Source of the DNA: Naegleria gruberi
Lineage: Eukaryota
Assembly: GCA_000004985.1 (NCBI GenBank)
Contig: GG738845.1
Reading direction: 5' to 3' (one strand)
Length of the DNA stretch: 64,000 nt
How positions within the stretch are numbered: position 1 is the stretch's first letter; every line of letters starts with the position of its first letter. The position numbers were made by a program, and so were the translations under genes. Under the pieces are notes generated by a model. The model did not search any database. It was given only the letters and a program-made list of their open reading frames with translations, and had not been told where the DNA came from. Positions 1,130 to 12,111 of the stretch are shown here, piece after piece.

Positions 1130-3529
1130 ATGAAGAACACAAGCAGTGGAAGAAACCTGTGTTCGTTGTTGATGAAGAAAAACCATCATCGGGTTACTGC
1201 TTCCAGACTTTCAGGAACCATTTCATCTCTTCACAACAATATATCAACATGGAAAAGTGTTCCTTCCTTCATTAATAACTCTATCACCATGGCTAGTAAT
1301 AATAATAATTGCAAATTCTATAGTATCATCTCCAATAATAATTTACAATCCGACAAGGAAGACAGGGATGATGATTTTATGGATGACAATTTAATTGAAG
1401 GATTTATTGTTGAATATTTTGATAAGAGTAGTAAAACCATCAAATTAGGCTTGTTGGATGAACATGAATCTGTTATTTATCAAGAGAATTTTACAAATGT
1501 TAAAAACAAGGATGTTGTCATTATAGAAAAGTGGTCAAACATGTTGACTACTTTGAATGATTTACGAGAAATTAGAGAAAAGGCTAATTATATGGTATTG
1601 GATGAAACCTATCAAGCAGATTTTGAACTAAGATTGGAAAATCTATTAATTGAAGGATTTACATCTGGAAAGAAATTTTCATCATCAACATTATCGAATG
1701 AATTATTTGAAATTCAAAGTATGATTACCAGATATATTGCTTTTTATTTATTTGAAAATTCTGGATGTTTCAAATATGATACAAGATCCAACAAGTATAT
1801 TGTTATTGAAACAGATTCTAGTCAGATTAGAGTTAAAGATTTTATAAGGAGAGCTAAGAAGCGTATTCAGGAAATTAATGACTTGAAACAAAAGAATGGT
1901 CAAATAGAAAACAATTCACAGCTTCTCAATGCGAATCTTCATACTAAATGGGATCCAATTATTGATGTGCCACTTTTGAGAAAAATGGAGTTTTTCATCC
2001 TTTCCAACTTTTTGAACTCTAAAAACAAGACTATCATTGAATCAATTTTAGAATCTTTCAGATATCCAAAGAATAGACGTGGAGCTGCCCAATTTCTACA
2101 TGCTGTTGGTCATATGCATTTTGAAAAGTCTTCAAATCTCATGGAAGAGAGTATGGACCCAGATTTTGAAAATGTAAAAAATCTCCCATCGATAGTCAAG
2201 CCATTCCCAAACCAAGTTGAAAGTGCTTCTCAAATCATGCTCAAACAAGTTACTTCATTGATTGAAAAGGAAAAGGAAAATATTTCGAGAAGAGACTTAA
2301 GAAAATTGAAATGTATTGCTATTGACGATATTTCTACACAGGCATACGATGATGCTGTCAGTATTGAAAAGACTGTGAATGGATATAAGATTTATATTCA
2401 TGTTTGTGATGTTTCCTCATTTATTACTAAGAATGATGCCCTTGAAACAGAATCTCGTTCCAGAGTTAAAACAATCTATGGAAAGAATGGTGTCCGTTTA
2501 ATGTTGCATCCTTGTGCTATCAGAGCTATCACGCTTTCACCAGAGAGAGAAAACCTAGGGTTCACTCTTGAACTCAGTCTTATAAAGAGTGGCTCAGAAC
2601 TTAAATTGGACAAGTATGAATTTTACAAATCCATTCTTCCAAAGGTTGAAATATTCACTTATAACACTGTAGACTCACTCTTCAATCAATTTGTAAAGAA
2701 AAAGATGGGCAACAAGTCAACTGATATGGATCAATCTCATCAATTGCTGATAGAAATGCTTCATATTTCAATCAATGTAGATAAGAGTTTGAATTTGGGG
2801 TTAATTTCCAAAACAAAATCAACTCCTGCTCACGATACTGTTGCAATTATTATGAGTATTGCCAATAGTGTCTTGGCTGCTCACATCAAGCAAGTAGATA
2901 TACAAAATCTATTCCCACAATCCAATTCATACTATAGATTTACTTCTCCTATGAGAAGGTATGCTGATTTGGTTACCCACATCCAATATAACTCATTACT
3001 GAACAATAGCAAGGAGCCTATCTATTCAGATAAGGAAATTAAGAATATTTGTACAGAAATTCAATCATTTGAAAAGGATATTTTGGAAACTCAACTAATG
3101 ATGGATAAGAAAAAGAGAGATTTGGCAACATCAAAAAATAAGAATCAATCGGTCAATAATAGCAATCAAAAGCAATCCAATAAGGTGATTGGTAAGGTTG
3201 TTAAAAAGAGAAAGGGTATGAGCTCTGTTTACATCCCATCTATGGATAAAACAATTTCTCTTCACTTGGTTGAATTTGACGAAGTGAAAATGATAGAGCT
3301 ATTGTCTGGCATTCTTCCCGAAACTGAAAAATCATCAATGGATATGCTTGGATGGCCTGCCCTTACTAAGAAAATGAAGGAAAATAGATCTCCAAATGAT
3401 ATTATGGAAGGTTCCAAAGTTGTCTTGAACATCAAACACATTGAATATTACGAAAACGATACTTACAAACCAAAGGTTATTGTTGCTGAACATTGTTTTG
3501 AAGAAAAGGTTGACAATTATACCATTTAA
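1130..3529 (+). CDS. RNB-family 3'-5' exoribonuclease (RNase II/R / Dis3-like), 799 aa
   Basis: Single ORF. RNB motif I is IAIDDISTQAYDDAVSI (2321-2356) and the conserved motif YYRFTSPMRRYADLVTHIQ is present. The ATG is preceded by an A-tract. The N-terminus is basic and S-rich, so possibly organellar. Confidence 0.8.
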   Translation: MKNTSSGRNLCSLLMKKNHHRVTASRLSGTISSLHNNISTWKSVPSFINNSITMASNNNNCKFYSIISNNNLQSDKEDRDDDFMDDNLIEGFIVEYFDKSSKTIKLGLLDEHESVIYQENFTNVKNKDVVIIEKWSNMLTTLNDLREIREKANYMVLDETYQADFELRLENLLIEGFTSGKKFSSSTLSNELFEIQSMITRYIAFYLFENSGCFKYDTRSNKYIVIETDSSQIRVKDFIRRAKKRIQEINDLKQKNGQIENNSQLLNANLHTKWDPIIDVPLLRKMEFFILSNFLNSKNKTIIESILESFRYPKNRRGAAQFLHAVGHMHFEKSSNLMEESMDPDFENVKNLPSIVKPFPNQVESASQIMLKQVTSLIEKEKENISRRDLRKLKCIAIDDISTQAYDDAVSIEKTVNGYKIYIHVCDVSSFITKNDALETESRSRVKTIYGKNGVRLMLHPCAIRAITLSPERENLGFTLELSLIKSGSELKLDKYEFYKSILPKVEIFTYNTVDSLFNQFVKKKMGNKSTDMDQSHQLLIEMLHISINVDKSLNLGLISKTKSTPAHDTVAIIMSIANSVLAAHIKQVDIQNLFPQSNSYYRFTSPMRRYADLVTHIQYNSLLNNSKEPIYSDKEIKNICTEIQSFEKDILETQLMMDKKKRDLATSKNKNQSVNNSNQKQSNKVIGKVVKKRKGMSSVYIPSMDKTISLHLVEFDEVKMIELLSGILPETEKSSMDMLGWPALTKKMKENRSPNDIMEGSKVVLNIKHIEYYENDTYKPKVIVAEHCFEEKVDNYTI

Positions 3530-3646
3530 TTAAAATTTTAATTTTTTACCCACCCTTTCTAATAAATTAATAAATCCAAGTTGAAACCTGAGCTATTACA
3601 TAAATCCATGTGAAGGCTCTCCTGTCAATATTTCCTCCATCCAGGA

Positions 3647-6624
3647 TTATAGTTTTCGTTTAATGGTTCCTGGGTTAGATATTTCAATCAAATCTCTAAA
3701 GCAAAGAGCTCGCACCTGAACATTGAATAGAGATTGTAGTTTAGAATCATCCTTCTTTGCTTTTTTCATTTGTGCAAATCTCTCCAACCATTCAGCCACT
3801 TCAATTTCATACCTTACATTCATTTTACATTGTTCCAAGGTGTTTTTTGCCATGTACAAGTCTGGTGTTTCATGTTTTTCTTTTGTATTGTCACATAGGA
3901 ATAGAGTTGGATGGTAAAAGGCTAGATTGTACTCATAGCCTTCCCTCTTTGTGAGAGGTCTGATGAATTGATTGAGAGATTGTCCTTTCATAGGTTGAAT
4001 GAAAAATAATTCATTGAGCACCAACTTTTCGATCCATGGCCTTTTCGAATATTCTTTCGTATTGATGGAAATGAATTCGGTTTGATATATCGTAGAAGGA
4101 CTTGTAAACATGTCCGTAAATAGAGTTTTGAGCTTGCTTTGGACCTTCTTCCATGTTTCTTGAGAGATTTGTTCTGATGTTTCTGCTGTATCGATCTGAG
4201 AGGAGAGAATTGACTTTCTCTTTTGCTTTCTACCTTTGAAAATCGTTTCATCTTTGTATGTAGAGCAACATCCCTCACAATAATACTTGATAATGGTGTT
4301 GACTTCCTCTGGTGTAATGTCAATACATGAAAAGTGATAGTGATTTCTGCATCTTTCACACATAACCATTTCATTGGTTTTCCAAGATCCTCCACATTTA
4401 CAAAAAGTATTCTTCTTTCTTTTAGAGACTGATTTACCGGATTGGTGCTCTTTCAAAGCTTTACAATATTTACAATTAAATGCTCGTTTTTCACTGTAAT
4501 CAGTGGCCTTTTCCCCTACACATTTGCAGTGATACCAAATCTCACAACTCTCACACTGTATCATATCATCTCTTGAGCTATCATATATACCTCTACAGAA
4601 ACAATAATTTGTATCTTGTTGTTCAGTTCTAACACAAGTATTACAGTGGAAGGTTTTGGAAGGTGGGTTGTGAACTCCAACGCATGATTTGTGGAATACA
4701 TTATTGCAAAGATTACACTCAACCTTATCTCTTGGCTTGAGCTCGAGTTGACAAAAACAACTAGTCTTAGATTTGGGAATGAGTTGTTTTGGATCAAATT
4801 CTTCCTCATCGTCAGACATGTACTTAGCTGATTCAGAATTGGATTGGAATTGCTTTGTAAGATAATTCATTGTTTCTAGCGGTAAACTACTACTATCACC
4901 ACTGCTGATTAATTGTTCAGCAGTGGTATCGCTTGTTTGAATAGTTACATCTTTGAAAATGGAAGATAATGTATTATATTCCTCTTCAAATAGACCTTGG
5001 TTGCTTCTTATTTCATCAATTTTGACTTGCCAACAAGCTAAAAAGTCAACAATGTTTTCCTTTGGTATATCACCTCTATTATTGTTGGCATCATAAAGAA
5101 AAATATGATTAACTTACTTTAGTGCTGTAATAATCTTCTTGAACCAAGATTGCTCTTTGAAACTTCTTGGAGAAATAATGGACTGATGGATAATTAGGAC
5201 AAGATCGTCATTCTTCTCTTCACCAATTATTTCCAAGGTTTGTTTAACATTTTGCTCTTTAAAAACCAAGCAACGCAGGGCTATTTCGATCAATTCAACA
5301 ATGAGAGGATGAATGTAAAAGAAAAATCTGAATTGAGTTATACAGGGACTTATATCTTCTTCAGTAACATTGTTTCCACTTTAAACAACAACATTCTTAT
5401 CCAAACATTGATAAGGCTATTAACTTACAATTTCGATTTTACAGAAGGTAATGATTTCAATAGTGGCAATAACTCTTTAGAAAAGAGAATTTGTAAACAT
5501 TTTTCGTCTGGTAATGTGAAAAAAGCTCTAGTAAAAATAGAGAGTGGGCAATAGTGGAAATGTCTAGTATACAAATGCTATTCCATTTCAATAATTTCAG
5601 TAATCACATTGAAACTTACCTTGAGAGAGTTGGAAAAATGTTTGAGGGATGTAAAATCGTTCATTAAAAATTTCAAAACTTCATAGCTAGGTCTTAAATT
5701 AACATTGAAATTTTTCTGAATAAAGAGATCATTGGTACATTTCAAAAATAGTGGCTTTGCTAATGATTGAGTTTTGAACGTTTTGATTTGAAATCTGCTC
5801 AACTGTTGTACAATATTAGTTTGTTCAATTAAAAATAGTTTAACTTACATCAACATTCATCCCTTCCAAAATATCAACTCCCTTCTCATCCACTCTCAAG
5901 ATATTAATGATTGGAAATCTTGAAGAATATGATGAACACAACTCTAACCATTTTCCAATTTGAGGTACATTGTGAGTATTCTCGAAAACAAATACGATTG
6001 CCTTCTTTCCACCAGGTGAAGAATATGTCATTTCTTTAAGGGCGTCGGGTAATCCAAATACTTTGTTTGTATACTTTTGTGCAATTAGTGTCAATAGAGC
6101 TTTTAAGGTTGGAAACATTGTCTCTGATCTGAAAATGCAAACATGAAATCCGTCCAATTTTTGTCCTTTTTTTGGAGCTTCTTCCTCATAATCTTCATAG
6201 TCCTCGTATTCATCATATTCGTCATCATATTCCACATATGAATCTCTAATGAAAAATGATTCCATTAATTTGTCTATTATTTCGAAACAATTAACATTCG
6301 AAATGTGACATTTAACCTACTTGTTGTTGTTTTCAAAATGATTACAGGTGAAATACATTTACTCAAGCCTTTATCAAATCTTTCTGCAATATCCTGTAAC
6401 TCTTCAATAATTAACTCTTCAGTGTGGGTATTTTCTTCAGCACTTGCCTTTCTATTGATAAACTCTTCCACATTATGAATTGATGAATCTATAATTTTCT
6501 GATATTTATCATGTTTTAAAAAGTCCTTTCTTGCCTCCGATAAGTCTTGTTCTTCAAGAATCAACTTCTTCTTGTGTGATCTCCGCCTAGAACGAACAGG
6601 TATTGTCAAAGAGTTGTTTATCAT
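3647..6624 (-). CDS. ORC3: Origin recognition complex subunit 3-like protein with three inserted PHD fingers, 6 exons, 916 aa
   Basis: Exons are 6624..6321, 6273..5849, 5802..5620, 5577..5429, 5378..5118 and 5075..3647. Introns are 47, 46, 42, 50 and 42 nt, with GTAGGT/GTAAGT donors and AG acceptors; total 2751 nt is in frame. ORC3-like blocks recalled from human ORC3: AIVFVFENTH...RFPIINIL; FNVNLRPSYEVLKFLMNDFTSLKHFSNSLK|HLYTRHFHYCPLSIF; LPDEKC..SLPSVKS; FFFYIHPLIVELIEIALRCL. The C-terminal block is PDLYMAKNTLEQCKMNV..VAEWLERFAQM...RDLIEISNPGTIK. Three PHD fingers lie at 4759..4265: CFCQ..CNLCNNVFHKSCVG..HCNTC; YCFCRGIYDSSRDDMIQCESCEIWYHCKCVG..CKYC; FCKCGGSW..MVMCERCRNHYHFSCI..YCEGC. Confidence 0.72.
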
Positions 6625-6652
6625 TTTTTTAAAAACTAATTTTTTGAATAAA

Positions 6653-6662
6653 TTTTGGCGGG
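6653..6662 (-). promoter_or_regulatory. E2F-type element CCCGCCAAAA, 38 nt upstream of the ORC3-like ATG
   Basis: The plus strand reads TTTTGGCGGG at 6653-6662. It lies in the 66-bp spacer between the exonuclease stop (6691) and the ORC3-like ATG (6624). The same 8-mer recurs upstream of three other genes (see findings). Confidence 0.5.
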
Positions 6663-6690
6663 TAAAACATTATTGTTGCTTCCAAGAAAA

Positions 6691-8343
6691 CTATTGAGTA
6701 TTGAACTTTATTGGAATGTTGTACTTGTTGGAAATGTGATCCTCATAGTGATGATGACCTGAATCGAAAAATTCCATCAGATTTTCCTTCACTCGTTTAG
6801 ATCTCTCCTCAATTTGTTGTTCAAAGTTTGGAATTTGCATCTTGATTCTGAAAAGATTACTTGCTGGATTTGAGATATGTTTGAAAAAGTAATAACCTGC
6901 CAGTACATCAAGGGCAGCATATTCAATTCTTATGTTTCCTTTGGATGTTGAGGGCCTCATATCTTTTGGATTCCAAATCAAATCATTGTACTTTAAATTA
7001 TTTTCAAATTTGTGATAAATCTTTGGTGCACAGAAGGAGAATAGTTTTTGTAGACCTAATACTAGAGGATCACCTTCAACCCATCCATGTTCGTTCACAT
7101 TCAGGTCGGTTTGCAGGTTTGAATCAACTAATTGTTCATGCTTGTGATGTTGCAACCAATTATTGACCTTTTTAATGTCACCACTCAATGAATAACCAAT
7201 TTTCAAAATTTTTGGACTTCGAAAGAAATCGAGAAGGAATTTAGGAATGGGCTGTTTAAAATCAATTAGTAACACAAGACATACATCCAATGTCGATATT
7301 TGTAAGAGTCTGATACCGTGATCATTTTCATCATTGAAATTCCATTCTGTATCAACAACAAAAATTGAAGATTGATCTGCTGTATCCATGAATGAGTTCC
7401 AAATTCTCTTTTCCAATTTGCTCAATCTAGAGACAATTATCAGCTTGTCAGAATAGTCCAAATGAGTTAGAGATGTTCCAACCAGATGTTTCTTTTCTGG
7501 AATTGCTGATAATTTTTGTTTAATGTCTGTATTCCAAACTGAGAATCCATTCTTTGTTTTCTTTTTCAAATATAATTCATTATTATCCAACAAACCAGAA
7601 ATATATTCCACAAATTTAGAACGGTCGAGACCAAAATAATTAGTATTAGAGTAGACATTGCCAATATTAAAACATGCATCACCACTATTTACATTGAAAA
7701 TTCCCACAAATGAAGAGCAAATCTGTCCAAACAATCGATCCTTAAACTCTTGGCTTGTATTATCCTTTTTGGAAAAGAATGGTGCGATTTTTTTGCAAAC
7801 AATGGTGTCATCTTGAATTTCAGTAATATTGAGCTCTTTGGAATGTTGCTCAACAAATGTTTTGCTTAATAAATAATGTAATCTAGGTAGAATTTGTTTA
7901 AGTTTTGTTGTCATTTCTTTCATAGAACATGAGACAATTCCCTTCTCTTCTTTTCCACAATATTTTAAATAGTTGAAAATAAAAATTACTAATTGTGTAT
8001 CATCACTGCCATAAATTGTGTCAATAATTCTTTTAACAGTAGCAAGTTTATGCAATTCCTTCTTTCCTAATCTCTTTTCCGAGTCGTTTACATCCTCAGT
8101 AGCAACTAAGTCGATATCTTTTTCAAGTACAAAAGATGATGTTATTTGTTCATCCCTTTCATTCTTTTCCTCCGAAGTATGCTTTTTCTTTTTTGTTTTA
8201 GGTTCCAATTTATGTGGTTTTTCTTGTTGTTTAATTTGTGTTGATGATTTTTTCTTCTTATCTTTGTTATGTTGTTTCGATGATGAAGAATTGTTTCCCT
8301 TTTTCAACAGTTGGGATTTAACTTCCTCTCTTCCTCTTTTCAT
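6691..8343 (-). CDS. 3'-5' exonuclease domain protein (DEDDy, WRN-exonuclease/Mut-7-like), 550 aa
   Basis: Single ORF. Exo I is IFVVDTEWNF, followed by LLQISTLDVCLVLLIDF, KILKIGYSLSGDIKKV and the Exo III motif EYAALDVLAGYYFF. The N-terminus is lysine-rich. The ATG is preceded by an A-tract. Confidence 0.75.
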   Translation of the reverse strand: MKRGREEVKSQLLKKGNNSSSSKQHNKDKKKKSSTQIKQQEKPHKLEPKTKKKKHTSEEKNERDEQITSSFVLEKDIDLVATEDVNDSEKRLGKKELHKLATVKRIIDTIYGSDDTQLVIFIFNYLKYCGKEEKGIVSCSMKEMTTKLKQILPRLHYLLSKTFVEQHSKELNITEIQDDTIVCKKIAPFFSKKDNTSQEFKDRLFGQICSSFVGIFNVNSGDACFNIGNVYSNTNYFGLDRSKFVEYISGLLDNNELYLKKKTKNGFSVWNTDIKQKLSAIPEKKHLVGTSLTHLDYSDKLIIVSRLSKLEKRIWNSFMDTADQSSIFVVDTEWNFNDENDHGIRLLQISTLDVCLVLLIDFKQPIPKFLLDFFRSPKILKIGYSLSGDIKKVNNWLQHHKHEQLVDSNLQTDLNVNEHGWVEGDPLVLGLQKLFSFCAPKIYHKFENNLKYNDLIWNPKDMRPSTSKGNIRIEYAALDVLAGYYFFKHISNPASNLFRIKMQIPNFEQQIEERSKRVKENLMEFFDSGHHHYEDHISNKYNIPIKFNTQ

Positions 8344-8376
8344 TTTTTTTGATGAAGTTGACTTTGAAAAGTTTTA

Positions 8377-9159
8377 TTAGGCACATTTTTCAATAAATTG
8401 TGCATCTATTATGTAATCATCGTCGAATGTTTTCTTTTTGGATTTAGACTTTTTCTTTTTCGATTTTTTCAAACCTGAACTGTTTCTAGTTGTTTCTTCA
8501 GTGAATTCCTGATCCTCACCAAAGGATGATTCGAAATTTTCTTGGTCATTAGTGGATTCACTTTCTTGTTTTCTAATCATGATACAAATACCTTCTGCTC
8601 CATCATATTCAGAACGTTCTACATTGAGATCTGTTATGTGAGGTTTAGCCTCAATTTTAGCACCTTCTGGTAATGGAACTCGTCTGTGAAATGTCACAGA
8701 CTCCATCATGCCACTCAAAGGTTTGAGTTTACCCTTTACAACCAGGCAATTTTCATCTATTGAAACTTGAGCTCTCTTTTTTGATAAACCTGGACAAGTT
8801 ACAACTAATTCAAAATGATCGTTTTCCTCATGCCAATTAATAGCAACCGAGTCATGGTTTTGATGTTCTTGTTCATAGACAAAAGCTTGTTTTAGCATTT
8901 CGGGAGCCATTCCTAAAATTGGATGTTCAAAATACATCATATCCTCACTAGGTCCATCTCTTATTCCTTGTTGTTGAATTATTTGAAATGGATCCATAGA
9001 AAATATATCTTCTATGGATCGTCTCTTTTTCAAGCTACTTGATTTTTTCTTTTTTGCCATTAATTTTTGTCCTATTGAAAAACTTCTATTATTCATAATC
9101 GTACATCCAAGCTGTTCTCCGATAAAACGACTTTTAGACAAGTTGTGTAATTTTAGCAT
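8377..9159 (-). CDS. Alpha-crystallin/HSP20-like domain protein, 260 aa
   Basis: The core INWHEENDHFELVVTCPGLSKKRAQVSIDENCLVVKGK...FHRRVPLPEGAKIE...GICIMIRK follows the ACD pattern (PG-x-K, L-x-I/V-x-G, F-x-R-x-x-x-LP). The tail is acidic and lysine-rich. This is a motif-level call only. Confidence 0.55.
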   Translation of the reverse strand: MLKLHNLSKSRFIGEQLGCTIMNNRSFSIGQKLMAKKKKSSSLKKRRSIEDIFSMDPFQIIQQQGIRDGPSEDMMYFEHPILGMAPEMLKQAFVYEQEHQNHDSVAINWHEENDHFELVVTCPGLSKKRAQVSIDENCLVVKGKLKPLSGMMESVTFHRRVPLPEGAKIEAKPHITDLNVERSEYDGAEGICIMIRKQESESTNDQENFESSFGEDQEFTEETTRNSSGLKKSKKKKSKSKKKTFDDDYIIDAQFIEKCA

Positions 9160-9263
9160 TTTTTTTGAATATTTAATATAATTAAATTTAGAATGAAAAA
9201 AATTAGAACCAATAATTTTTGGTTACCATTTAGAAATGGTTAAAATAATTTTCATCTCAATCT

Positions 9264-12111
9264 CTAGAGAAACTCTAACATTAATTCGTTTTCTTCTGGC
9301 AATGGAGCAATTCTGAAAGCCTTGACATGCATTGCTAAAGTTCTATCTGTTGTAAGGTAGTGTTCATTGATGTGAGCTAGGAGGTATAAAAGAAATTCTT
9401 CTAGAATAAATTCAGAACCATGTTGTTTGAATTCATCATGCAATTCATAAATAATTTCAATGAATTTTTCATGCTCCTTGAAATGTTCTTCCAACAAGTC
9501 GTTTTTAAGTAAGCATTCAATAAAGAGTCGTCTTTCTGCTTCAAAGGATTCTTGTAATGATTCAATGGCATCTTCCAAAATATAAATCCCAATATTCCAC
9601 TCCACTAGAGACACATTCTTGTTGGCTTTTGCCATTCTGAAAATTGATTTGGTCAAGTTATTAATTGTATCGAATAATTTCATGTAGCAAGTATCAATAA
9701 CACCTAAATTATAACCCAACTGATTAGTCCAAGCAATCAATTGTTCTCTAGGCAACACTGTAAGATTATTAATGGTTACCAAGTGTTGAGATTGTGTTGA
9801 GGTTGGTATTGTTCCACTCACAACATTACTTCCTCCATTCAGGTTATTACTTGCTGAGGAACCAGCTGTTGAACCATTTAGAACAGCACTGAAATCATCC
9901 ATAGATGAAGTCTGTCTGTGTGGAGTGGCAGATCCACTACTTTGACCGCTTTCTCCTCTATTTTTTGTAATCTTCTTGAATAGTCCAGCAAATCGATTAG
10001 AATCCTTGGTATCATCATTAATGATAATTCCCATTTCTTTTGCAACTTTCTTGCATGATTTGTGTTGCTTGTTTTGAATTTTTACATTGGCACCTCCAAT
10101 AGTAATCAAGAGATTGGAAGTTGATGGATTATTCAATTTCAATGAGAGATGAAGCCCCGTATCACCATCATTATTTTGTTCATCAATAGACATTTCATTA
10201 CTTGATATCAAAACCCAAAAGAATGCCTCATTGGGAATATCATGATTGTACAGGTAGCATTTTGAAGCAGAGAATGGAATGTGTACTGGTGTATTAGTAA
10301 TATTACTGCTATTATCTCCATAATACGATGGAGAATCACTGCTACTATTGCTGTTATTATCTGCACTGCCTGTTGAATCATTTTCATTACTGTTTTGGAA
10401 GGAGAAATTATTATTGACAGTTGGCGTTGAAATAATAGTTGCAGAATCAATTGGTTCACTTCCACTATTTGGTGTAATAATATTTGAGTTGACAACATTG
10501 GAGATGGAATTACCAACCAAGTTGACTGTATAGTGAAGAACAGTATTTCCCTTAACTCTATCTTTGAAATTTAAAAAGGCCTGAATTCTATCTAATGGTA
10601 TGAATTGAATTAAAATGCAAAACGAAATGAAATAACCCTGTTGAGCACATATATGAAGGAGAGTTTTGCCTAGTTGATCATCAGATCGAATCCATCTCTG
10701 AAACTCATCCAATGCATAATTTTTACAGAACCAATCACACAATTTGAACAACAATGAAGGGAATGGAAGTGAGCAGAATAGACAATTTTCCTCGAATCGG
10801 TTCTTTGTTGCAATGTTAATATTTGGCTGTTTAAGAATGAATTGAACTCGAGGCCAATCGTTCGATTCACATGCATCGTGTAAAATGGTATTTCCTCTCT
10901 TTCCCTTAAAATTGACATCAGCTCCAAACAGAATAAGAGCATCTGCTGTTTCAAAAAACCCTCCCGACAAGGCTATACCTAATGGAAAATTTTCATAAGC
11001 ATCACGAATATTAACTTGAGCTCCTTTTGATGCCAGAACATGACAGGCATCAGTGTGTCCATGAGCACTTGCTAAGAAAATTGGAGTACTATCCGATTTG
11101 TCAACAATATTAGGATTAGCTCCATACTTGTCAATTAAATATTCAATAATATGAGTATGACCAAATCTTGAAGCAATATGTAATAGTGATCTATCATTCT
11201 TTGTCTTGTCTCTAAATATTTGATTAATATCAAATAGTATGCCACCTCCTCCACCACTAGAAAATGAAGTATTTGACGGAACAAATAGGGATGTTGAATT
11301 GCTACTGGTAGAATTACCACCAGATGGTGACGAAGAGCCACCACTAGCCACTCTAGGTGAAATTGGATAAGTATTGTTTTTAATTGAATCCAGTAATCGA
11401 ACCAATTCATCCAAATACCCATACTCAATGCAGGCCAATACACGTTGTTCCATTGATAATTTAACATGTTCAAAATCTATTAATTGATCTCCTAATTATT
11501 ATTCAAAGTATTAACATGTGAATGTTGAATTAGATAGACATACCTGTATATAAATTATTTCCCAAATGTGGAGCTTCTAAAGTTAACAAAATTGGAGAGG
11601 ATCCAATTTCCAAATCATTCAGTTTAATCATGATGGATGGATTTGAATCTTTCAACCTATCATTTTGATGATTATCTGTAATATTTTCATCACAATCCAA
11701 TTTCTCTCCAAATTCATGGTAATGCATCTGCTGATTTTGAGAAGAGGAATCACTGAGTTGTGTGTCTTCTTGTTTCTTGTTGATTTTTTCATATTTTTCA
11801 CTTAGAATTTCACTACTCAGTGAGTGAACGCTCATATTTTCTATGAGCATTAAATCATCAGATTTTAATCTGTGATATGGAATGGTATTGTCCCCTAGCA
11901 TACACCTCCTAATACAATACAAGTCAAAGTGATATTTACATAGTGTTTTAATGGAGTGTTTTCCGGAAATTAGATTGTAATGAATGCTACTGGTACTTGA
12001 GAGAGATGTTAAATTATTATTGTTTGATGATGAGATGTTCATTGATGAAGAGGAAGGAAAAAGATTGGCAGATGATGAGTGTGGAGATGGTTGAGACATT
12101 TTTTGTAACAT
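9264..12111 (-). CDS. Ankyrin-repeat protein with low-complexity inserts, 2 exons
   Basis: Exon 1 is 12111..11544 with a GTATGT donor. Exon 2 starts at 11476 (67-nt intron) or 11491 (52-nt intron); both acceptors are in frame. Ankyrin repeats include SLLHIASRFGHTHIIEYLIDKYGANPN, TPIFLASAHGHTDACHVLASKGAQVN and NTILHDACE. An alternative ATG lies at 12099. Confidence 0.7.

Follow-up and report, generated by a model that had tools for sequence, protein, structure and literature searches.

Does Naegleria gruberi possess the third subunit of ORC, the origin recognition complex? Tiengwe et al. (2012) scored Orc3 as absent from this species (PMC3297607), and Ocana-Pallares et al. (2020) listed Discoba candidates for every ORC subunit 'except ORC3' (PMC7058166). 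The question is raised anew by a minus-strand gene located near one end of a 64,000-nucleotide stretch of contig GG738845.1 (assembly GCA_000004985.1; the whole stretch is called the window hereafter), which a first-pass annotation, made from the DNA letters and their open reading frames (ORFs), had read as an ORC3 orthologue with three PHD fingers inserted before its C-terminal winged helix. Sequence and fold comparisons lead us to conclude that the locus probably (with a probability of roughly 0.85) represents N. gruberi ORC3, an orthologue of the AAA+-like, non-catalytic ORC subunit, with three PHD fingers in front of its winged helix. The fuller explanation, which adds to this identity an inferred role in ORC and the reading of histone H3 trimethylated on lysine 4 (H3K4me3), also appears likely when taken as a whole.

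The gene had been proposed to consist of exons joined by five micro-introns into a single 916-aa frame. Taking the nearest acceptor for each donor, we reproduced this frame at identical length: the spliced coding sequence measures 2751 nt, is open throughout and specifies 916 aa and a stop codon. Introns 1 to 5 are 47, 46, 42, 50 and 42 nt long, respectively; their donors, all of them strong, read GTAAGT (four introns) or GTAGGT (one intron), an AG is found at every acceptor, and their GC content (22-28%) is to be compared with that of the exons (33.8%). An in-frame stop codon arises if any single one of the five introns is retained. All five junctions are also used by the public gene model from the Joint Genome Institute (JGI). 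Of ten other ORFs of the window, seven are identical at every residue to proteins of N. gruberi NEG-M, all from a single scaffold of 1.56 Mb.

The junction between exons 5 and 6 is the critical one. The exon-6 frame is open from position 5118 downward and its first ATG is found only at position 4870. The locus might comprise two genes, an ORC3-like one ending near 5118 and a second one, encoding the PHD fingers and the winged helix, starting at ATG 4870, in which case the 916-aa frame would be a joining artefact; a 407-aa ORF does open at this ATG, and translation through the unspliced intron 5 meets a stop codon directly after K441. Several lines of evidence make this division very improbable. 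The 68 ATG-free codons located between 5074 and 4871 are kept in N. fowleri, N. lovaniensis, Willaertia magna and a relative known from a metagenome contig of the European Nucleotide Archive (ENA). The N. fowleri gene, FDP41_000508, contains six introns, five of which lie at codons homologous to those of all five N. gruberi introns, the one preceding the PHD fingers included. The ENA contig (L003, protein P0004) is intronless at the exon 5/6 junction: a 541-aa unbroken ORF reads through this point as ALKGSIPKSNVIDFL, its sequence across the junction being RDALKGSIPKSNVIDFL, and continues into three PHD fingers and the same C-terminus. In P0010, a 1601-aa protein from a JGI metagenome (3300037860, contig Ga0401357_00210, here L002, positions 3001-7806), one uninterrupted 4806-nt ORF holds an ORC3_N domain (77.6 bits), no fewer than five PHD fingers and a C-terminal winged-helix tail of the same kind. 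The fusion of ORC3 with PHD fingers is therefore independent of any splice prediction. Finally, ORC3 needs its winged-helix tier, which a division would take away from the N-terminal gene. The first-pass annotation had itself considered that 5075..3647 could be a separate gene, and this possibility fails on the conserved codons upstream from the ATG, the N. fowleri intron, P0004 and P0010. Judged from these comparative sequence data, 6624..3647 is one spliced gene.

Read from its N-terminus, the encoded protein begins with a basic tail, followed by the alpha/beta domain and lid of the ORC3 N-terminal part and then by a helical region; an acidic linker leads on to the three PHD fingers, and a basic linker connects these to the winged helix. 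The ORC3-type blocks reported earlier on both sides of the fingers are real; they are weak in any single sequence and were established by profile and fold comparisons. On the N-terminal side, exon 2 encodes a Walker-B-like strand (AIVFVFEN) and the invariant block PIINILRVDEKG. A profile built from the N-terminal part of the Naegleria sequences only, when run exhaustively against 1.84 billion representative proteins, found 11 proteins, among which were an Acrasis kona protein named 'origin recognition complex subunit 3' (E-value of 8.5e-15) and P0010 (3.2e-8). Both exceed the Pfam cut-off for ORC3_N three-fold (74-78 bits). Like the window protein, P0010 and the A. kona protein KAL0487211.1 display an ORC3_N domain, an array of PHD fingers and, at the C-terminus, a winged helix that finishes with '...RFGLA.RS.MIMGFVK'; unlike it, they carry more fingers (six or more) and much longer disordered linkers, and they are only 18-24% identical to it, P0010 being in addition intronless. 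These two proteins bridge the Naegleria sequences to canonical ORC3. Indeed, a six-sequence family profile searched against the sequences of the PDB retrieved human ORC3 (E-value of 1.8e-10) and Drosophila ORC3 (1.5e-5), the next match having an E-value of 0.82. The alignment covers residues 116-346 of human ORC3, including the 'VVVILKD...' strand and the 'F...L...L.EHFY..PLS' lid motif, and the core block of exon 2 lies inside it. Profile and transitive evidence, rather than a curated single-sequence threshold, thus point to an AAA+-like domain with a lid of the ORC3 type.

On the C-terminal side, the two best PDB matches of a seven-sequence profile both fell on the Drosophila ORC3 winged helix, the first of them covering residues 570-667 of 676, and ORC3 chains were likewise the top fold matches when the winged-helix part was compared using Foldseek. 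The AlphaFold model of aa 745-916 of the window protein displays a helix-strand-helix-helix-strand-strand succession, with a predicted local distance difference test score (pLDDT) of 72-91 across the last 75 residues. An ORC3-type winged-helix domain is therefore recognized by the fold and the profile, not by the Pfam model.

A full-length comparison of folds was made with an AlphaFold model of the N. fowleri orthologue FDP41_000508 (49% identical) instead of the window protein, and this model was used for ranking fold matches only. Foldseek ranked ORC3 chains of human, fly and yeast in all of the first 24 places in the PDB (E-values of 1.3e-8 to 3e-4); ORC4 appeared from rank 25, followed by clamp loaders. 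Residues ~320-500 form a conserved stretch that is entirely helical (in the orthologue model, helices 370-498), and it lies where ORC3 has its insertion domain, the part to which the C-terminal helix of ORC6 binds. As far as the models go, the overall fold appears nearer to ORC3 than to ORC1, ORC2, ORC4, ORC5, Cdc6 or other AAA+ proteins. Compared with chain C of the canonical structures (human 5UJ8/7JPO, Drosophila 4XGC/7JGR, yeast 5ZR1), the protein shares the AAA+-like domain with its lid, the helical middle part and the C-terminal winged helix; it differs in that ~200 residues, made up of the three PHD fingers with their charged linkers, separate the helical region from the winged helix, and in a divergence so large that Pfam and PDB searches with a single sequence find nothing or narrowly miss the threshold.

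Several points weigh against an ORC3 identity. ORC3_N (PF07034) matched aa 1-540 of the N. gruberi protein, scanned alone, with an E-value of 3.7e-5 and 23.7 bits, which is just below the cut-off of 25, and a full-length Pfam scan of the 916-aa protein at E-values up to 1 returned only PHD, ORC3_N not being seen. The C-terminal 197 aa gave no Pfam match, ORC_WH_C (PF18137) included. Of the Pfam models that the first-pass annotation suggested as a check, ORC3_N and ORC_WH_C stay below threshold on the N. gruberi protein itself. The C-terminal E-values are weak (0.016 for the sequence profile, 0.033 for Foldseek), and the full-length N. fowleri model has low confidence scores (mean pLDDT of 54.5; predicted template modelling score, pTM, of 0.39). 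Three-sequence Naegleria profiles searched against the PDB sequences gave no match with the N-terminal part, no match with the C-terminal part and, at full length, PHD proteins only among the matches listed. The larger profiles and the fold comparisons do support homology on the N-terminal and the C-terminal sides alike, and it is on them that we base the conclusion that both flanks are homologous to ORC3, with the PHD block placed in the linker that connects the helical middle part to the winged helix. Note that ORC3_N was seen only when the N-terminal 540 aa were scanned; whole-protein scans of comparable fusion proteins may mask weak flanking domains.

Homology to ORC3 could also be accounted for by a protein that descends from ORC3 but has left ORC, becoming a lineage-specific chromatin factor (e.g. 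in transcription or silencing) that retains the ORC3 fold; in that case Naegleria would replicate with an ORC that is devoid of ORC3 or contains an undetected one. Such a history would suit a sequence so divergent that it lies under the Pfam cut-off, it would agree with the frequent loss of ORC subunits in protists and with ORC3 being the least conserved of them (PMC7058166), and ORC subunits of other organisms have non-replicative roles (PMC6244734). It nonetheless seems improbable to us, since both ORC3 tiers (AAA+-like and winged-helix) have been retained, together with the intervening helical region, and all of this is conserved across Heterolobosea. The exhaustive profile search, moreover, disclosed no second ORC3-like Naegleria protein, the N. 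gruberi genome itself not having been scanned with an ORC3 model. In known ORCs, Orc1/Cdc6, Orc2, Orc4 and Orc6 assemble around ORC3, and N. gruberi is reported to keep all of these.

We now turn to the insertion that sets this putative ORC3 apart. The Pfam PHD model (PF00628) matched three stretches (E-value of 3.9e-16; 59.2 bits, as compared to a cut-off of 24), and a C4HC3 regular expression found exactly three fingers (aa 547-588, 599-645 and 666-710, i.e. window positions 4759-4268), in agreement with the three consecutive fingers previously placed at 4759-4265. Among the matches listed, the closest solved relatives of finger 3 are plant Alfin-like PHD fingers, and those of finger 2 are PHF2 (E-value of 1.4e-9), CFP1, PHF8, KDM7A, DIDO1, YNG1 and BPTF. 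The PHD fingers of the latter proteins are all H3K4me3 readers, which bears out the earlier assignment of the middle finger to the H3K4me3-reader type exemplified by PHF8 and BPTF. In a pairwise alignment, finger 2 is 37% identical to the PHD finger of PHF2 (E-value of 2e-11), and its residues Y598, Y605, M612 and W621 align with Y7, Y14, M20 and W29 of PHF2, which form the K4me3 cage and are invariant across the KDM7 family (PMC9898751). A full cage of the H3K4me3 type is thus predicted for finger 2 only, fingers 1 and 3 being devoid of the tryptophan. Finger 2 shares the full Y/Y/M/W cage with the PHD fingers of the KDM7 family (PHF2, PHF8, KDM7A). It differs from PHF2 in that it is not followed by a Jumonji domain, which in PHF2 adds two further cage residues, and in that the acidic residue contacting H3R2 (E22 in PHF2) is replaced by Q614.

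The protein could also be an ORC3 whose fingers are not H3K4me3 readers and instead bind unmodified H3, another mark or a non-histone partner, or serve as zinc-stabilized spacers in the linker. The conservation pattern speaks partly in favor of this idea: the full cage exists in one finger out of three, the second cage tyrosine (Y605) is not kept in N. fowleri, N. lovaniensis or Willaertia, which also tells against the H3K4me3 assignment, the finger count is variable (3 to 6 or more), and conservation does not extend to the linkers. Furthermore, the targets of PHF2-type fingers include methylated non-histone proteins, VRK1 being one of them (PMC9898751). By contrast, each of the five Naegleria and Willaertia-type sequences retains, in finger 2, the W-x-H tryptophan and the methionine of the cage, all four cage residues are present in N. 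gruberi on a background of 37% identity to the PHF2 finger, the best solved relatives of this finger, among the matches listed, are without exception H3K4me3 readers, and H3K4me3 does occur in N. gruberi chromatin. On balance, we consider it rather unlikely, though far from negligible, that the fingers do something other than read H3K4me3.

If the protein is ORC3 and finger 2 does read H3K4me3, the following mechanism can be proposed. Canonical ORC3 is a stable subunit of the ORC2-5 core, which origin licensing requires. The protein would join ORC in the usual manner, via its AAA+-like and winged-helix tiers, and the PHD array, carried by flexible charged linkers beside the winged helix, would touch the tails of histone H3. 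Finger 2, with its complete methyl-lysine cage of the PHF2 type, would recognize the H3K4me3 tail, and fingers 1 and 3, which do not have the full cage, would probably read another state of the H3 tail or add avidity. ORC would thereby be tethered to, or biased towards, H3K4me3 nucleosomes just downstream from transcription start sites, that is to say the 5' ends of genes in this gene-dense genome. Chromatin immunoprecipitation sequencing (ChIP-seq) of N. gruberi showed that H3K4me3 follows the transcription start site in most genes (PMC12695648), and such a reader would therefore bias ORC to gene 5' ends. The odds on this tethering mechanism seem to us about even or slightly lower. The further step, in which origins would be picked by direct reading of H3K4me3 (perhaps of a combined H3-tail state) on nucleosomes just after transcription start sites, is put forward more tentatively.

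In this mechanism, the fingers would fill the role that ORC1 plays elsewhere through its BAH domain (animals) or its PHD finger (plants). In animals and yeast, the ORC1 BAH domain reads H4K20me2 or the nucleosome. The resemblance to the present case lies in a chromatin-reading module that forms a covalent part of ORC and contributes to its positioning on chromatin (a predicted function here); the fold, the mark and the subunit are different. The PHD finger of plant ORC1 is described, for Arabidopsis, as an effector of H3K4me3 (Sanchez and Gutierrez 2009, cited in PMC7058166). Here the common features are a methyl-lysine-type PHD finger in an ORC subunit and its acquisition in one lineage by domain rearrangement (PMC7058166). 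The Naegleria protein differs from plant ORC1 in that the host subunit is ORC3, not ORC1, in that there are three or more fingers instead of one, located before the winged helix and not in the N-terminal region, and in that the lineage is Heterolobosea and not Chloroplastida, binding being predicted in the present case.

The first-pass annotation had suggested looking for the insertion in the ORC3 orthologues of related species, and Naegleria, Willaertia, Acrasis and uncultured relatives all have it. The 921-aa FDP41_000508 of N. fowleri aligns with the window protein over its full length (97% coverage, 49% identity), as does N. lovaniensis C9374_001934 over the full length, and three fingers are found in each of N. 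fowleri, N. lovaniensis and W. magna. The same layout recurs in A. kona KAL0487211.1 (1409 aa), with six PHD fingers, and in the two uncultured relatives represented by contigs L003 (ENA) and L002 (JGI). Family members thus differ in finger count (3 to 6 or more) and do not share conserved linkers. By this sampling of sequences, the ORC3-PHD architecture belongs to the whole lineage (Heterolobosea) and not to the N. gruberi genome alone. As the layout is shared by Naegleria/Willaertia and Acrasis, the PHD insertion is older than the split between Naegleria/Willaertia and the acrasids; the number of fingers appears to have changed after it. Being conserved across a whole protist class, the arrangement is therefore under selection and is no annotation accident.

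Several database entries of this family call for comment. Two near-identical A. kona ORC3 entries are found on different contigs, KAL0485922.1 (786 aa) and the complete KAL0487211.1; the shorter one ends in an unrelated tail before the PHD array and may contain a frameshift or a model error, and the two may be alleles or duplicated contigs. The two Acrasis entries share one 90%-identity cluster, and so do the two Willaertia entries. By its C-terminal motif, P0010 has Acrasis as its nearest named relative. In the model of N. lovaniensis C9374_001934 (aa ~345-400), about 50 conserved residues of the helical region are missing and an unrelated stretch stands in their place (alignment columns 370-450), which is probably a mis-predicted exon and not a real deletion. 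A word-indexed protein search, performed in three runs up to a six-sequence profile, returned only the N. fowleri and N. lovaniensis orthologues; it missed the N. gruberi protein because the corresponding cluster is represented by a 729-aa member. An exact look-up of the 407-aa ORF starting at ATG 4870 and of a 550-aa ORF found no identical protein.

Why, then, had this gene escaped notice? The public model of the locus, NAEGRDRAFT_61447 (EFC50780.1 / XP_002683524.1), is a 2425-aa 'predicted protein' extending over positions 4011-11453 of the minus strand, and it is a chimera of four adjacent minus-strand genes. One of its predicted introns absorbs both the stop codon of the upstream exonuclease gene and the start codon of ORC3, and a spurious 44-nt intron (4144-4101) causes a frameshift that ends the model at 4011, with loss of the winged helix. 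ORC3 was thus overlooked in N. gruberi because the gene is highly diverged and its public model is chimeric and truncated. The N. fowleri and N. lovaniensis entries are named just 'PHD-type domain-containing protein'. The statement that no ORC3 with PHD fingers was known is only partly correct: our literature search for ORC3 together with PHD found no paper linking them, nor any report of a histone-reader module on ORC3, and the phrase 'origin recognition complex' occurs nowhere in the text of the Acrasis genome paper, but the A. kona database entry already bears both the ORC3 name and PHD fingers. The coordinates of the features are collected in Table 1.

Table 1. Features of the ORC3-PHD locus and its surroundings (positions refer to the window; aa numbering is that of the 916-aa protein unless another model is named)
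Feature	Position	Strand	Description
ORC3-PHD whole gene	3647..6624	minus	six exons and five micro-introns; 916 codons, TAA stop at 3649-3647
Exon 1	6321..6624	minus	aa 1-101 plus 1 nt; basic N-terminal tail, first helices of the ORC3 N-terminal region
Intron 1	6320-6274	minus	47 nt; homologous in position to N. fowleri intron 1
Exon 2	5849..6273	minus	aa 102-243; acidic loop and alpha/beta core of the AAA+-like domain
Pfam ORC3_N match	5533..6232	minus	aa 116-319, profile positions 160-328 of 328; spans exons 2-4; lid motif 'F...L..LY.RHF...PLS'
Exon 3	5620..5802	minus	aa 244-304; both junctions kept in N. fowleri and used in public model P0020
Exon 4	5429..5577	minus	aa 305-353 plus 2 nt
Exon 5	5118..5378	minus	aa 354-440 plus 2 nt; within the all-helical region after ORC3_N, at the ORC3 insertion-domain position
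Intron 5	5076..5117	minus	42 nt, GTAAGT...TAG; links the ORC3 body to the PHD and winged-helix exon; homologous intron in N. fowleri
Exon 6	5075-3647	minus	carries the PHD fingers and the winged helix
Exon 6, start	4760..5075	minus	aa 441-546; conserved helices GDIPKENIVDFLACWQVKIDEIR, then acidic, poorly conserved linker; ATG-free before 4870
PHD finger 1	4634..4759	minus	aa 547-588, C4HC3; without cage tryptophan
PHD finger 2	4463..4606	minus	aa 598-645, 'YCxC...W.H..CVG' type
PHD finger 3	4268..4402	minus	aa 666-710; without tryptophan preceding the zinc-binding histidine
Conserved C-terminal region	3650..4165	minus	aa 745-916
Winged helix proper	3868-3650	minus	about aa 844-916; motifs 'PD.Y.AK', 'EWLERF', 'F..QVRAL..R..I'
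NAEGRDRAFT_61447, part 1	9264-11453	minus	ORF of an ankyrin-repeat-like gene
NAEGRDRAFT_61447, part 2	8377-9159	minus	ORF
NAEGRDRAFT_61447, part 3	6691-8343	minus	3'-5' exonuclease; upstream neighbour of ORC3-PHD
NAEGRDRAFT_61447, part 4		minus	ORC3-PHD aa 14-751
RNB-domain gene	1130-3529	plus	799-aa protein (RNase II/R-like; E-value of 2.5e-32); downstream convergent neighbour

The upstream neighbour encodes a 550-aa protein with a DNA_pol_A_exo1 3'-5' exonuclease domain (E-value of 8.5e-6). Only 66 nt separate its stop codon from the start codon of ORC3, and this short gap helps explain why the gene predictor merged the two genes. On the other side, the stop codon of the RNB-domain gene is located ~117 nt from that of ORC3. 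In N. fowleri (L001, 11246-12569) and on the ENA contig (L003, 2115-3311), the gene for the small subunit of DNA primase, which likewise serves replication, is found directly downstream from ORC3-PHD. A tblastn search for primase across the 64-kb N. gruberi window found none, and the ORC3-primase neighbourhood is therefore not conserved.

The existence of an ORC3 gene in N. gruberi, as identified here, closes a gap in the comparative study of replication. Of all ORC subunits, only ORC3 lacked any Discoba candidate (PMC7058166), and the gap bears on whether a complete ORC was found in the last common ancestor of eukaryotes; if our reading is true, a complete ORC including ORC3 would already have existed in the Discoba ancestor. 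That an ORC subunit can have a built-in histone reader was known; what is new is a putative module of this kind built into ORC3. If true, it would constitute an independent third solution to the coupling of ORC with chromatin, after the ORC1 BAH domain of animals and fungi and the ORC1 PHD finger of plants. The existing H3K4me3 ChIP-seq data for N. gruberi (PMC12695648) make the link from histone mark to origin choice directly testable: ORC sites and replication origins are predicted to coincide with H3K4me3 nucleosomes in a manner that would depend on W621.

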